In this document: positions 19,367-25,648 of the stretch, in pieces
How positions within the stretch are numbered: position 1 is the first letter of the stretch
How the letters are laid out: each line of letters starts with the position of its first letter
Notes under the pieces: model-generated
What the model was told of the DNA's origin: nothing
The model's input: only the letters and a program-made list of their open reading frames with translations
Databases searched by the model: none
Source of the DNA: Candidatus Fervidifonticultor secundus
GTDB lineage: Bacteria > Sysuimicrobiota > Sysuimicrobiia > Sysuimicrobiales > Humicultoraceae
Length of the DNA: 45,579 bases
Assembly (NCBI GenBank): GCA_031459385.1
Contig: JAVKIP010000018.1
Span: 1 to 45,579 of the forward strand
Reading direction: 5' to 3'
Program-made: the position numbers and the translations under genes

Positions 19367-20941
19367 GTGGATCTCTACGAGTCGGAAGTGCGCCTGCTGA
19401 GCGCCTGTCTCCGGGACCGGCACGTCATCGCGCTGGCCGTCACCGAGGGGTTCCACCCCGAGCTGCTGACCTCGCCCCTCGCGCGACGCGTGGCCAAGGT
19501 GCTGCTCGAGTTGCACGCCGCACCCGCCGTGGTCCTGGACGAGCCGGGGCTCCGCGCCCGCCTGGTCGATCGCGGCCTCATGACGGCCGAGATGGAGCGC
19601 TACCTGGTCGGCGTGCTCCAGGCCGCCCCCCTGACGGCCGGGGAAGTGGTGGCGCAGATCGAGGTGCTCAAGGCCCGGGAGAGCCGCGACCTCCTGGCGC
19701 AGGTCCATGAGCTCCTGGGCGCCTACCTGTTCCGCCCGGACGGCCAGCAGGCCGACATCATGCAGGTCACGGCCGAAGCGATCCACCGCCTGCTGGAGAT
19801 CCAGCGGCGCCGGGTGCGCCGGCAGGTCCAGCCCATCGCCGAGGCCTTTGGGCCGCTGCTCAGCGAGGCCGGGCAGCACGCGCAGCCGAGCGGGCAGCTC
19901 GGGTACTCGCTCGCCCCGTTCGACCGTCTGGGCGCGCTCCTCTCGGGCCTCCGCCGTGGCTTCTACTACGGGCTCGCCGGCGCGCCGCGCCGGGGCAAGA
20001 CGAACCTGGCGCTGGAGCTGGCCTGCCACGTCGCGGCCAACCACAAGATCCCCGTCCTGTACTACTCGTGGGAGCAGACGCGGCGGGTGCTGGCGGCGCG
20101 CCTGATCGCCAAGGAGGTCGGCATCAACCCCGCGTCGATCCTGGCCGGGGCGGATGCGCTGGGCCCGGTCGGCCCGCGGGTGCAGCTGGCCAGGGGCGCG
20201 GTGGGGCGGTACGCGCCGTACCTCCACCTGGTGGAGGCCGGACGGAAGGACACGCTGGACCGCATCCGCGCCCACGCCCACAACCTGATGCAGGAGTTCC
20301 AGACCGGCGAGATCGTGCTCTTCTTCGACTACCTCCAGAAGATCCCGCTGGCCGAGCACCTCGAAGACTGGAAGGCGCGCACCGACCGCATCTCGACCGA
20401 GCTGGCCGAGCTGAGCCTGGAGCTCAACTGCCCGGTGTTCGCCATCTCGCCGCTCGACAAGGAAGGCTGCCGGCTCGACGAGCGGCCGGCCGAGGATACC
20501 GACGTGTTCAATCCGTTCAACCGCCCGACGATGCACCACGCCATGGGGAGCGGCGACCTGGAGTACGACCTCGACGTGGCCATGGTGCTGGCCAAGGACT
20601 GGAAGGGCACGGCGGACCTCCATCAGCTCATCGAGGCCCGGGCCAAGGCGGAGGGGTTCGATCCTGCGCTGATGCCCCGGGTGGACATCGTGAACCTCTT
20701 CGTCGACAAGAACCGCGACGCCCCCGAGGCCGAGTCGAACACCGTGCAGTTCGCCTTCTTCGTGACCCTCAACAAGTTCATCGAGCTAGACTACAAGTTC
20801 GAGGACGAGTACCGTCCCGACTACCATGGGTTCGCCAAGCTCCAGGACATCTACACGTACCTGCGCGATCTGGGCTACGGTCCGCCCAGGGAGCCGGCCG
20901 CGGCACAGCACACGAGCGGGAGTGGAGGGAGAAACCGATGA
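19367..20941 (+). CDS. Divergent DnaB-like (SF4) helicase/ATPase
   Basis: H1 GAPRRGKT, H1a YYSWEQ, H2 FFDYLQ, H3 AISPL, H4 GSGDLEYDLD...DKNRD. DnaB-N-like helical N-terminus, GGGAGAGG RBS and GTG start. Confidence 0.85.
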   Translation: MDLYESEVRLLSACLRDRHVIALAVTEGFHPELLTSPLARRVAKVLLELHAAPAVVLDEPGLRARLVDRGLMTAEMERYLVGVLQAAPLTAGEVVAQIEVLKARESRDLLAQVHELLGAYLFRPDGQQADIMQVTAEAIHRLLEIQRRRVRRQVQPIAEAFGPLLSEAGQHAQPSGQLGYSLAPFDRLGALLSGLRRGFYYGLAGAPRRGKTNLALELACHVAANHKIPVLYYSWEQTRRVLAARLIAKEVGINPASILAGADALGPVGPRVQLARGAVGRYAPYLHLVEAGRKDTLDRIRAHAHNLMQEFQTGEIVLFFDYLQKIPLAEHLEDWKARTDRISTELAELSLELNCPVFAISPLDKEGCRLDERPAEDTDVFNPFNRPTMHHAMGSGDLEYDLDVAMVLAKDWKGTADLHQLIEARAKAEGFDPALMPRVDIVNLFVDKNRDAPEAESNTVQFAFFVTLNKFIELDYKFEDEYRPDYHGFAKLQDIYTYLRDLGYGPPREPAAAQHTSGSGGRNR

Positions 20942-21261
20942 TCGTCGACAGGCACGCCCCCATCTATCCGATCCGGACGGTGGCGCACCTGACGGGCGTC
21001 AACCCGCGCCGGATCCGCGCATGGGAGGATCAGTACAACCTGCTGTCTCCGGCGCGCACCGCGGGGGGGCACCGGCTCTACAGCGAGGAAGACGTAGAGC
21101 GCATCCGCTGGGTCAAAGCCCTGGTGGATCGGGGCATTAGTCTGAAGGGGATCCAGCGCCTGGTCGAGCAGGGCGGCGGGAGCCCCGCAGCCAGCGCGCC
21201 GCCGGTGGAGCCCGCCAAGCCCGTGGAGGTGGTGGCCGAGAGGCGCGGTGGCGGCCGATGA
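20938..21261 (+). CDS. Small MerR-family HTH regulator with no effector domain
   Basis: YPIRTVAHLTGVNPRRIRAWE...P.RTAGGHRLYSEEDV. ATGA overlap with the helicase gene. Confidence 0.9.
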   Translation: MIVDRHAPIYPIRTVAHLTGVNPRRIRAWEDQYNLLSPARTAGGHRLYSEEDVERIRWVKALVDRGISLKGIQRLVEQGGGSPAASAPPVEPAKPVEVVAERRGGGR

Positions 21262-21500
21262 AGGTGCAGCTCGATCGCGAGCAGGTGGTGGTGTTCACGC
21301 CGTTTCACCGCATCGAGGGAGACCTGCACCTGCCGTCGACGGCGCGGCTGTCCGACCGGCTGAACGCGGCCAAGGACTTCCTGCCCATCACGTCGGCGCG
21401 GCTCTTCTCGCTGGACGGTCGGCTGCTGTACGAGACCGAGGTCGTGCTGGTCAACAAGGCCCACGTCGTCATGATGATGGAGCGCCATGAAGCCCGCTAA
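21258..21500 (+). CDS. Small conserved hypothetical protein (DUF6812-like)
   Basis: 80 aa, T..HRIEGDLHL...RLSD.LN...FLPIT.A...VNK.HV pattern. Overlaps both neighbours. Confidence 0.7.
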   Translation: MKVQLDREQVVVFTPFHRIEGDLHLPSTARLSDRLNAAKDFLPITSARLFSLDGRLLYETEVVLVNKAHVVMMMERHEAR

Positions 21501-24421: not shown

Positions 24422-24424
24422 GGC

Positions 24425-25648
24425 ATGGCTGTCTTCCGGTACAGCGCCAAGGACAACACCGGGCGCCTGATCACCGGCGTCATCGAGGCCGACAACGACG
24501 CCGTGGTGATCGACCGCCTGCGCGACATGGGCTTCTTCATCACCAACCTGGAGCGCACGGTCGAGCGGCGCGACCTGCTGGAGTCGCTGCAGAGCCTGTT
24601 CGGTATCGGGCTCAAAGACCTGGCGATCTTCTCGCGCCAGTTCTCCACCATGGTGAACTCGGGGCTGTCGCTGGTCCGGACGCTCTCGATCCTCGAGCAG
24701 CAGACCACCAACAAGCGCCTGCGCCAGATCATCACCCAGGTCCGGCAGGACGTGGAGGCCGGGCGGCCGCTCTCGGATGCGTTGGGTCGCCACCCGCAGG
24801 CGTTCTCGTCGCTCTACGTCAACATGGTGAAGGCCGGCGAGACCGGCGGCGTGCTCGACGAGGTGCTCGAGCGCCTGGCCAACTACCTCGAGAAAGAGCA
24901 GGCGCTGCGCAGCAAGATCCGCTCGGCGATGGTCTACCCGGCCCTGCTGACCGTGGCGGCCCTGGGCGGCCTATTCTTCATGACCATCGTGATCCTGCCC
25001 CAGTTCGAGACGCTGTTCCGGGAACTGGGCGGGTCCGGCGCCCTGCCCCTGCCGACCCAGATCGCCATGGGCGTCAGCTACGTGCTCCGGCGGTTCTGGT
25101 ACGTCTTCTTCGCGGGGCTGGCGGCTATGGTCTACGTCCTGCGCCGGTACCTGAAGACGCCGTCGGGGCGCGCGCGCTACGACCGCCTCAAGCTCAAGGC
25201 GCCGGTGCTGGGTGAGCTGAACCGGAAGATCGTCATCGCTCGCTTCACGCGCACCCTGGGCACGCTGATCGCCAGCGGCGTGCCCATCATGCAGTCGCTG
25301 GAAGTCGTGGCCAAGGCCATCGACAACGTCGTCATCGGCGAGGCCGTGGACGCCGTCCGGTCCAGCATCCGCGAGGGCCAGTCCATCGCCATCCCCCTGC
25401 AGTTCTCGGGGATCTTCCCGCCCATGGTGGTGCAGATGACCCGCGTGGGCGAGGAGACTGGCGCCCTGGAGCAGATGCTGCAGAAGGTGGCGGACTTCTA
25501 CGACGTTGAAGTCGAGGCCACCGTCCAGAGCCTGACCTCGCTGCTGGAGCCGATTCTCATCATCTTCATGGGCGTCGTGGTCGGAGCCATGGTGATCTCG
25601 CTCTACCTGCCCATCTTCAACCTGGCGACCGGCGGGGGGATCAAGTAG
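24425..25648 (+). CDS. pilC: Type IV pilus platform protein PilC (GspF family)
   Basis: FSRQFSTMVNSGL, AGETGG.L, SAMVYP, VGEETG.L and SLLEP motifs. Confidence 0.95.
   Translation: MAVFRYSAKDNTGRLITGVIEADNDAVVIDRLRDMGFFITNLERTVERRDLLESLQSLFGIGLKDLAIFSRQFSTMVNSGLSLVRTLSILEQQTTNKRLRQIITQVRQDVEAGRPLSDALGRHPQAFSSLYVNMVKAGETGGVLDEVLERLANYLEKEQALRSKIRSAMVYPALLTVAALGGLFFMTIVILPQFETLFRELGGSGALPLPTQIAMGVSYVLRRFWYVFFAGLAAMVYVLRRYLKTPSGRARYDRLKLKAPVLGELNRKIVIARFTRTLGTLIASGVPIMQSLEVVAKAIDNVVIGEAVDAVRSSIREGQSIAIPLQFSGIFPPMVVQMTRVGEETGALEQMLQKVADFYDVEVEATVQSLTSLLEPILIIFMGVVVGAMVISLYLPIFNLATGGGIK

Follow-up and report, generated by a model that had tools for sequence, protein, structure and literature searches.

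Proteins of the DnaB family are regarded almost exclusively as the replicative helicases of cells, phages and plasmids. In a stretch of 45,579 nucleotides from Candidatus Fervidifonticultor secundus (GenBank assembly GCA_031459385.1, contig JAVKIP010000018.1; the whole stretch is called the window in the following), we found a gene for a DnaB-like protein as the first of six genes on the same strand, in the order DnaB-like-MerR-DUF6812-pilB-pilT-pilC, as given by the table of open reading frames (ORFs) and their translations. The question raised by this locus is what a DnaB-like ATPase does at the head of the genes for a type IV pilus motor. The explanation we favour, to which we give about an even chance of being right, is that the protein, a member of an old paralog family, is a ring ATPase with no part in replication, that its gene was captured once into the pilus motor operon and is co-expressed with it, and that the linkage reflects co-regulation.

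The gene run is tightly packed. From the DnaB-like gene to pilB, neighbouring genes overlap by 4, 4 and 14 nt; pilB and pilT are then separated by 28 nt, and pilT and pilC by 3 nt. This confirms the coordinates and the coupling given in a preliminary description of the locus. A start-stop overlap of the DnaB-like gene with the next gene was also observed in 6 relatives (L009, L011, L012, L015, L025 and L029), counted among those whose alignment reaches the last DnaB-like residue. A scan of the run from the DnaB-like gene to pilC for terminators revealed no convincing site, just two weak 5-bp stems located in coding sequence. Judged by this spacing, the DnaB-like gene is most likely the first of a run that is transcribed together with the pilus motor, and translation is probably in step with that of the motor where the genes overlap. 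The GC content of the gene (0.69-0.72) and its GC content at third codon positions (GC3, 0.90) match those of the flanks.

The DnaB-like protein and its family

To place the gene, the genome (3.3 Mb, 59 contigs) was searched for DnaB copies. A canonical DnaB is encoded on contig C7 (15177-17459; L001:1426-3810); it reaches 549 bits on TIGR00665, above the cut-off, and its match to the DnaB N-terminal domain is strong. The ATPase domain is interrupted by an intein (PF14890, 64.6 bits), and rplI lies directly upstream in the classical arrangement DUF2232-rplI-dnaB. The gene in the window is not beside rplI, lacks an intein and is flanked by pilB genes. It is a paralog and not the replicative DnaB of the genome; the separate canonical dnaB that the preliminary description had left to be confirmed thus exists. 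Two genes were likewise found in a genome of another family of the phylum CSP1-3 (G047, CSP1-3 family f3), with TIGR00665 scores of 575.9 bits (canonical) and 113.4 bits.

The window protein scores 83.6 bits on DnaB_C and 104.9 bits on TIGR00665, compared to a cut-off of 385.25, with an alignment that covers residues 5-474. Its Pfam matches are confined to DnaB_C and AAA_25, and its NCBIfam matches to models of DnaB-family helicases (16 families at E <= 0.01), among which RadA (TIGR00416) does not occur. We found no match to a known Pil, Gsp or Com family in Pfam or NCBIfam, nor to KaiC (PF06745) at E <= 0.01; for KaiC, one distant member of the protein family gave a sub-threshold score of 20.7 bits. 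A profile of the family aligns end to end with Geobacillus DnaB (2r6a, positions 8-478). The AlphaFold2 (AF2) model of the protein has a predicted local distance difference test (pLDDT) value of 72.8 and matches DnaB chains over ~480-500 columns in Foldseek, the best being 4esv (E 1.9e-17).

The preliminary description had called the protein a full-length but divergent DnaB paralog with intact ATPase motifs, and this is what we found. Present are Walker A (GAPRRGKT), the catalytic E236, Walker B (DYLQ) and the arginine finger in DKNRDAP (K448-N-R450). These motifs are invariant in 14 aligned family sequences, and over 111 family rows 75 positions are at least 97% conserved, including G205-K211, E236, D321 and K448/R450. 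In this superfamily the arginine finger acts in trans. Since this finger is invariant, the protein would be an oligomeric, probably ring-shaped, active ATPase. The two substrate motifs differ from DnaB in the way described earlier, as the alignments bear out: H3 reads SPL where DnaB has SQL, and H4 reads (A)MGSG (HAMGSG for LRESG) where DnaB has RESG. Low-GC clades of the family have SSL at H3, and an xGSG loop at H4 is found across the family. A conserved C-terminal extension of ~45 amino acids (aa) is additional to DnaB. The family signature comprises GFYYGxAGAPRRGKT, YSWEQT, SxLDKEG, RPTM..G.GD.EYD.D and DKNRDAP together with this extension, and all of these are found in the window protein.

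The family is sharply delimited. When a profile built from 14 members was searched against 1.84 billion representatives, 13 family representatives scored 446-796 bits, followed by 15 short fragments, and all other proteins remained at or below 143 bits; the window protein scores 861 bits. The 30 nearest outsiders comprise 5 canonical DnaB proteins, 12 DnaB-like proteins below the cut-off and 13 proteins without a strong NCBIfam match. Members were found in CSP1-3/Sysuimicrobiota, in Caldisericota and in other uncultured lineages. The divergent ones are 34-46% identical to the window protein and come from organisms of much lower GC content; according to source names the low-GC clade is Caldisericota, with single occurrences of the names Muiribacteriota and 'Deferrimicrobium'. 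The DnaB N-terminal domain is still detectable in part of the family (e.g. P0126, 33.4 bits). Two low-GC members, P0132 and P0133, carry an N-terminal CxxC...CxxC motif that resembles a zinc ribbon and a Pro/Gln-rich linker of 200-270 aa before the DnaB-like body; the N-terminal extensions of P0132, P0133 and P0128 showed no Pfam domain, and the motif and linker of P0132 and P0133 offered no clue to function.

Within CSP1-3, the profile search identified the gene in 72 of 94 species genomes (71 of 92 without the unpublished G016 and G024) and in 43 of the 54 of high quality. By CSP1-3 family, the gene is present in 28/33 genomes of f1, 20/22 of f3, 12/23 of f4 and 11/12 of f5, and in 0/1 each of f2, f6 and f7. 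Many f3 matches were flagged as having stops inside, which look like overhang; in G047, the one case checked, the alignment runs 6 nt past the true stop. The closest loci carry the names Candidatus Fervidifonticultor and Candidatus Geohabitans tengchongensis, and many bear the NCBI label Armatimonadota. Both names denote metagenome-assembled genomes in the phylum CSP1-3/Sysuimicrobiota (PMC11604079).

The closest relatives outside the family by profile are short DnaB-C-like pseudo-ATPases of ~390-400 aa (P0151, P0154, P0155, P0178 and P0246). Their profile gives 144-180 bits on the DnaB-like protein compared to 30-57 bits on canonical DnaB. They are rare, with 5 proteins found, one of them under the source name 'Candidatus Cloacimonetes bacterium'. 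A third type of DnaB-C-like ORF (~453-460 aa; G092:C36:6342-7052, G060:C61:68128-68964, G062:C148 and G064:C55) matches the profile of the short relatives at 54-71 bits; three of these four genomes lack the paralog, and G064 has it.

Linkage to the pilus genes

We followed the linkage within the phylum by searching 27 related genome loci with the window proteins. PilB is encoded downstream of the DnaB-like gene in all 24 loci with enough downstream DNA, and a second, long PilB-type ATPase (PilB2) upstream of it in all 25 loci with upstream DNA, divergently in 21 and co-directionally in 4. The synteny of the DnaB-like and pil genes, whose conservation had been raised as a question in the preliminary description, is therefore conserved. 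Between the DnaB-like gene and pilB, 19 of the 24 loci contain the genes for MerR and DUF6812, one contains that for MerR alone and four contain neither. In family f4 (G066) the order is PilB2 -> DnaB-like -> PilB -> PilT -> PilC with the sigma factor and MerR genes upstream, while in family f5 PilB2 is divergent, the DnaB-like gene leads into PilT and PilC, and the second PilB is absent. The DnaB-like gene has thus been kept through the inversion of PilB2, the insertion of MerR and DUF6812 and the loss of PilB in f5, and protein identity across the linked copies ranges from 56 to 92%. The cluster of family f3 (G047) reads sigma-MerR-MglB-like-PilB2-PilB-PilT-PilC, with 46 bp between PilB2 and PilB.

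To trace the history of the linkage, 111 family rows were placed in a maximum-likelihood tree together with 10 outgroup DnaB sequences (IQ-TREE under LG+G4, in a quick search), with support from the Shimodaira-Hasegawa-like approximate likelihood ratio test (SH-aLRT) only; one gappy row was dropped. All 40 pil-linked rows, out of 101 with usable flanks, form a single clade together with one row too short to judge (SH-aLRT 99), and this clade is nested among 61 unlinked rows. Its sister is an unlinked clade of the f3 type, and the unlinked mid-GC and low-GC clades lie outside. Among the major clades, the linked one has the shortest stem (0.18 compared to 0.45-0.64), and the tree sets the sampled loci of families f1, f3, f4 and f5 apart. 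Because all linked copies form one nested clade, this phylogeny argues for a single entry of the gene into the pil cluster, in the ancestor of f1, f4 and f5. The 41 linked rows and the other 70 are told apart by one alignment position alone (L398 versus I), so we see no sign in the sequences that the protein was refitted for a new job.

The preliminary description had taken the protein for an ATPase repurposed for pili. This part of its proposal is not supported, as the family exceeds the linkage in both age and breadth, most metagenome loci are unlinked (70 of 80, see below), family f3 keeps the gene away from its pil cluster, the linked copies form one nested clade, and a single position discriminates them.

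Outside the linked clade, the neighbours of the DnaB-like gene vary by lineage and include genes for an amidohydrolase, phosphoglycerate mutase, seryl-tRNA synthetase, nuo subunits and enolase. In the mid-GC and f3-type clades, 30 loci (L082, L083, L090, L091, L094, L099, L102, L122, L123 and 21 more) have a Metallophos_2 phosphoesterase gene near the DnaB-like gene, at 0-4 kb on the downstream side; it is directly downstream in 9 loci and mostly on the same strand, with the opposite strand in five. The closest solved relative of this protein is the uncharacterised 3rqz; it matches Ap4A hydrolase weakly and gave no hint of a relation to DNA. For a small ORF that follows the f3-type copies, no relative was found in the PDB.

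Readings of the linkage

In the explanation we favour, the ancestral cluster would have read sigma(SigB/F-type)-MerR-MglB-like-PilB2-PilB-PilT-PilC, and a single insertion in the common ancestor of three CSP1-3 families would have placed the DnaB-like gene between the two PilB-type genes, where it would have remained. The paralog family itself is chromosomal and usually located among housekeeping genes. Its proteins would form an oligomeric ring that hydrolyses ATP at the subunit interfaces, as suggested by the invariant Walker A/B motifs, catalytic glutamate and trans-acting arginine finger. Since the substrate loops differ from those of DnaB (SPL for SQL, xGSG for RESG), the protein would be a translocase or switch, for which nucleic acid is the likeliest substrate. 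As the protein appears unchanged upon entry into the pil operon, its job would be the same as in the unlinked lineages, and the linkage would then mean co-regulation with piliation.

As to this job, the most economical guess, and no more than a guess, is the handling or processing of DNA imported by the pili, although evidence specific to DNA uptake was not found. ComEC, DprA and RadA are encoded elsewhere in the genome (RadA on contig C27, TIGR00416 602.7 bits). Their presence agrees with an ability to take up DNA, but genes of this kind are near-universal. A stronger version, in which the protein is a cytoplasmic motor working with the type IV pilus and competence apparatus, either in DNA import or processing, as a functional analogue of ComFA, ComM or RadA, or docked on the PilB/PilT/PilC platform, and in which the whole family, unlinked members included, together with the short pseudo-ATPases constitutes a so far unrecognised module associated with pili or competence, seems improbable to us.

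Several observations weigh against the explanation we favour. A metagenome scan with divergent members yielded 80 loci, of which 10 have pil genes; these 10 all have a GC content of 0.66-0.69 and are 56-59% identical to the window protein. In the remaining 70 (GC 0.29-0.64), no PilB, PilT or PilC gene lies within up to 7 kb. All f3 loci examined lack pil neighbours. The linkage is confined to one clade, and in G047 the DnaB-like gene lies on a separate contig amid unrelated genes, away from an otherwise identical pil cluster. Nothing among the neighbours of the unlinked copies points to DNA uptake. Genomes without the DnaB-like gene keep a pil cluster, which consists of PilB2-PilB-PilC in G092 and of PilB2-PilC in G060, G069 and G072; since such clusters exist, the pilus machine can do without the gene. 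A long-lasting adjacency within one slowly rearranging cluster can also be neutral, and co-transcription is a prediction from gene spacing. On the side of the protein, the loop 364-402 of the model is of low confidence. From the DnaB-ssDNA (single-stranded DNA) structure 4ESV, we presume that the glutamine of SQL senses the gamma-phosphate and that the arginine and glutamate of RESG touch ssDNA; as these residues are replaced, classical helicase coupling to DNA is not assured.

The gene might instead be a neutral passenger, brought by a chance rearrangement into a pil cluster that is rarely broken, with a non-replicative function unrelated to pili. This is a serious, if doubtful, alternative: it agrees with one insertion event without adaptive change, with the unrelated housekeeping contexts elsewhere and with the pil clusters that work without the gene in G092 and family f3. 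However, chance accounts less readily for the start-stop overlap with the next gene, seen here and in the 6 relatives, and for a gene that outlasted several local rearrangements which moved its neighbours; moreover, the 56-92% identity across the clade implies ample time for separation. The same persistence could speak for the opposite reading, namely a dedicated accessory or regulatory type IV pilus ATPase that binds PilB2, PilB, PilT or PilC or controls them with MerR and the SigF-type sigma factor, the whole family being pilus-related even where unlinked. The gene is held exactly between two PilB genes over three CSP1-3 families despite inversions, insertions and PilB loss, and the f4 genomes without it (G060, G069 and G072) also lack PilB and the 74%-type PilT, which leaves PilB2-PilC. 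The nearest profile relatives, the short pseudo-ATPases without the N-terminal domain, moreover have the same linker, loop and C-terminal extension. We nevertheless regard a dedicated pilus ATPase as unlikely. The family arose before the linkage, most of its copies are unlinked, family f3 has both gene and cluster but apart, the sequence did not change on capture, and the PilB2-PilB-PilC cluster of G092 lacks the gene. The genes that are jointly absent in f4 are contiguous and could have been lost in one deletion, and the protein has no homology to known pilus components in Pfam or NCBIfam.

Two further readings concern the origin of the gene and are much less probable. A helicase left behind by a prophage, plasmid or defence island would fit a feature search of the ESM Atlas, which places viral DnaB-like clusters nearest, and the 98.7 bits on PHROG 19, a DnaB-like helicase family. 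However, the viral clusters are look-alikes without an alignment, and the PHROGs matches are to generic DnaB families only. No phage, plasmid or integrase gene is found in the window, PADLOC gave no hit for the DnaB-like gene, and base composition matches the flanks. Furthermore, 72 of 94 species genomes in the phylum carry the gene, and its tree groups the sampled loci of f1, f3, f4 and f5 apart. We consider a mobile origin very improbable. The preliminary description had named homologs that are prophage-borne and unlinked to pil genes as a finding that would speak against it; most of the family indeed proved to be unlinked, while its members are not prophage-borne. That the protein is the, or a second, replicative helicase is suggested by its full-length DnaB architecture and intact ATPase motifs, but we give this next to no weight in view of a TIGR00665 score far below the equivalog cut-off, the canonical rplI-linked dnaB in the same genome, the altered H3 and H4 substrate motifs and the 11 of 54 high-quality genomes in the phylum that lack the gene.

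The finding matters for several reasons. The proteins form a deep, conserved and chromosomal family of DnaB paralogs in poorly studied phyla, found alongside canonical DnaB in the window genome and in G047. The family keeps every ATPase residue, yet the residues that we take to couple ATP to DNA in DnaB are changed, and the annotation 'replicative DNA helicase', now used by some sources, is unsuitable for these proteins. The sole functional hint available is that a pilus motor operon captured the gene once and has kept it through long divergence; this hint yields a testable hypothesis, namely co-regulation with piliation or DNA uptake. Full-text literature searches found no description of this DnaB-like/pil arrangement, of this paralog family or of DUF6812 in such a context, and the words pili, pilus, pilB, DnaB, helicase and competence are all missing from the main text of the CSP1-3 genome papers. 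The earlier statement that no described system has this arrangement therefore stands as far as the full-text search goes, whereas the interpretation that accompanied it is partly supported. Enrichment cultures and metatranscriptomes of Sysuimicrobiota already exist (PMC11604079).

The locus, its neighbours and known systems

The features of the locus are compiled in Table 1. As the preliminary description had stated, the remainder of the window contains no primase, rplI, phage or plasmid gene; its content consists of housekeeping, glycosyltransferase and further pilus genes.

Table 1 Features of the DnaB-like/pil locus in the window (scores in bits).
Feature	Coordinates	Strand	Properties
DnaB-like paralog	19367..20941	+	524 aa; GTG start; N-terminal helical domain, linker, RecA-type ATPase domain, C-terminal extension of ~45 aa
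MerR-family helix-turn-helix (HTH) protein, short	20938..21261	+	107 aa; PF13411 (MerR_1) 80.6; ATG overlaps DnaB-like stop codon
DUF6812 protein	21258..21500	+	80 aa; PF20660 60.6 (gathering threshold 27.1)
PilB assembly ATPase with MshEN N-terminus binding cyclic di-GMP (c-di-GMP)	21487..23196	+	T2SSE 482; TIGR02538 662.4; NF053729 69.4
PilT retraction ATPase	23225..24421	+	TIGR01420 474.4, exceeding the cut-off of 319
PilC platform protein	24425..25648	+	T2SSF 221 in two stretches; PilC models ~416-419
Type IV pilin-like protein	25830..26297	+	N_methyl motif 34.2; PilA/GspG matches weak
PilB2 (second PilB-type ATPase)	16888..19104	-	N-terminal extension containing TPR, MshEN; T2SSE 487.8; TIGR02538 667; NF053729; start likely
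Roadblock/LC7 (MglB-like) protein	16513..16869	+	PF03259 61.2; position conserved in relatives
SigB/SigF/SigG-type sigma factor	15030..16442	+	Pfam Sigma70_r2/r3/r4; TIGR02980 174.7, below the cut-off of 234
Divergent intergenic region, PilB2/DnaB-like	19105..19366		262 nt, given the likely PilB2 start; two GAAGTTC copies (19229, 19269); ribosome-binding site GGGAGAGG

The GTG start of the DnaB-like gene is preceded at a distance of 7 nt by GGGAGAGG, and the N-terminus agrees with those of the relatives. The PilB2 ORF is open to 19350, and relatives align only from about residue 76-92 of this long ORF; the start is likely the ATG at 19104, which leaves the divergent intergenic region of 262 nt. 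An ATG at 19256 was ruled out as PilB2 start because it is out of frame. A scan for sigma-70-type promoters in the intergenic region gave no match. The motif GAAGTTC occurs 7 times in the window compared to 1.58 expected, a number reached in 0 of 100 shuffles; two sites lie in the intergenic region (19229-19235 and 19269-19275) and two in tandem inside pilT (23410-23425), and similar GAAGTTC/GAGGTTC repeats were seen 5' of the DnaB-like start in several relatives. Many relatives (L006-L019, L025, L027, L029 and L030) have in addition a conserved non-coding stretch, ..GGGTTTGCCC..GGGACTA..CTTCTGGG(C/T)ATATTC..CTTGCCC, located ~80-140 nt upstream of the DnaB-like start; it might serve the divergent PilB2/DnaB-like pair as a promoter or for regulation. 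This stretch was searched for in the window and not found.

The MerR protein consists of little more than the HTH and a short helix and ends ~30 residues after the HTH region, without an effector domain; among NCBIfam models it fits HspR best, although its 59.8 bits fall short of the cut-off of 105. In other CSP1-3 families its ortholog is encoded between the sigma factor and MglB-like genes, so MerR is an old member of the pil cluster that was relocated in family f1 and not a partner brought in by the helicase. PADLOC reported a weak match of residues 8-56 to mad1 of 'mads' (36.5 bits), which is probably generic HTH similarity. DUF6812 occurs only in the arrangements of family f1. Its AF2 model (pLDDT 81.9) is a five-stranded barrel whose top Foldseek matches are all to Sm/LSm proteins, although weak (best E 5.4e-3, TM 0.60); a small Sm-like beta-barrel is thus weakly supported, as a lead.

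Upstream, the sigma factor gene has an uncertain start, with homology setting in near residue 222 of the ORF, and the position of the gene is conserved upstream in relatives. In the region 13442-15700, from the SLT/TPR gene (12394-13371) to the conserved part of the sigma factor, none of the ORFs has a coding-type GC3 and Pfam gave no match; the long ORFs there overlap on both strands. A gene for a GAF + HD_5 protein is located at 9318-10958, 6 kb upstream of the pilus cluster; if HD_5 is of the HD-GYP type, as we take it to be, the protein would be a c-di-GMP phosphodiesterase. Since both PilB paralogs carry the MshEN motif, the pilus system is likely controlled by c-di-GMP. Downstream, the pilin gene is followed by a gene for a PMT_2 (dolichyl-phosphate-mannose-type) glycosyltransferase (26338-28005). 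Genes of this type recur near pil genes in many relatives (L013, L019, L023, L026, L047, L113 and others; on the opposite strand in one), which suggests glycosylation of the pilin. A glycosyltransferase block of the exopolysaccharide type (26338-36554) separates the pil operon from two adjacent genes for PilT-like T2SSE ATPases (367 and 404 aa; 36705-39019, minus strand), 11 kb downstream of the operon.

Among known proteins, replicative DnaB (TIGR00665; Geobacillus 2R6A, 4ESV and 2VYE; E. coli 6BBM and 7T20) has the same two-domain architecture and fold as the DnaB-like protein, and Walker A, Walker B, the catalytic glutamate and the arginine finger are common to both. The window paralog differs by SPL and xGSG, by the additional C-terminal extension, by its position away from rplI and by the lack of an intein. 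The DnaB-like helicases of phages (TIGR03600; SPP1 G40P, 3BGW; PHROG 19) diverge from cellular DnaB to a comparable degree, and the window protein matches them with E 6.9e-15 (3bgw), 98.7 bits (PHROG 19) and 100.3 bits (TIGR03600). The last of these scores is, however, far below the cut-off of 498.65, and the DnaB-like gene is chromosomal, spread through the phylum and without phage genes nearby.

RadA/Sms and ComM are helicases that act on transforming DNA, RadA with a RecA fold and ComM as a ring ATPase, and a similar role would explain co-expression of the DnaB-like gene with pili. The protein is nevertheless unlike RadA, as it has no TIGR00416 match, no zinc finger and no Lon-like domain, and the genome has its own RadA. 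The short pseudo-ATPases resemble the DnaB-like family in the linker ahead of the ATPase domain, in the loop that precedes the GSG motif and in the C-terminal extension, but lack the N-terminal domain; their Walker A is degenerate in four of five (P0151 keeps an RGK remnant), and the arginine-finger motif is lost in all five. PilB and PilT, finally, are hexameric secretion ATPases encoded in the same operon, oligomeric P-loop motors as the DnaB-like protein would be; their fold family is unrelated (T2SSE versus DnaB_C), with no common domain detected.

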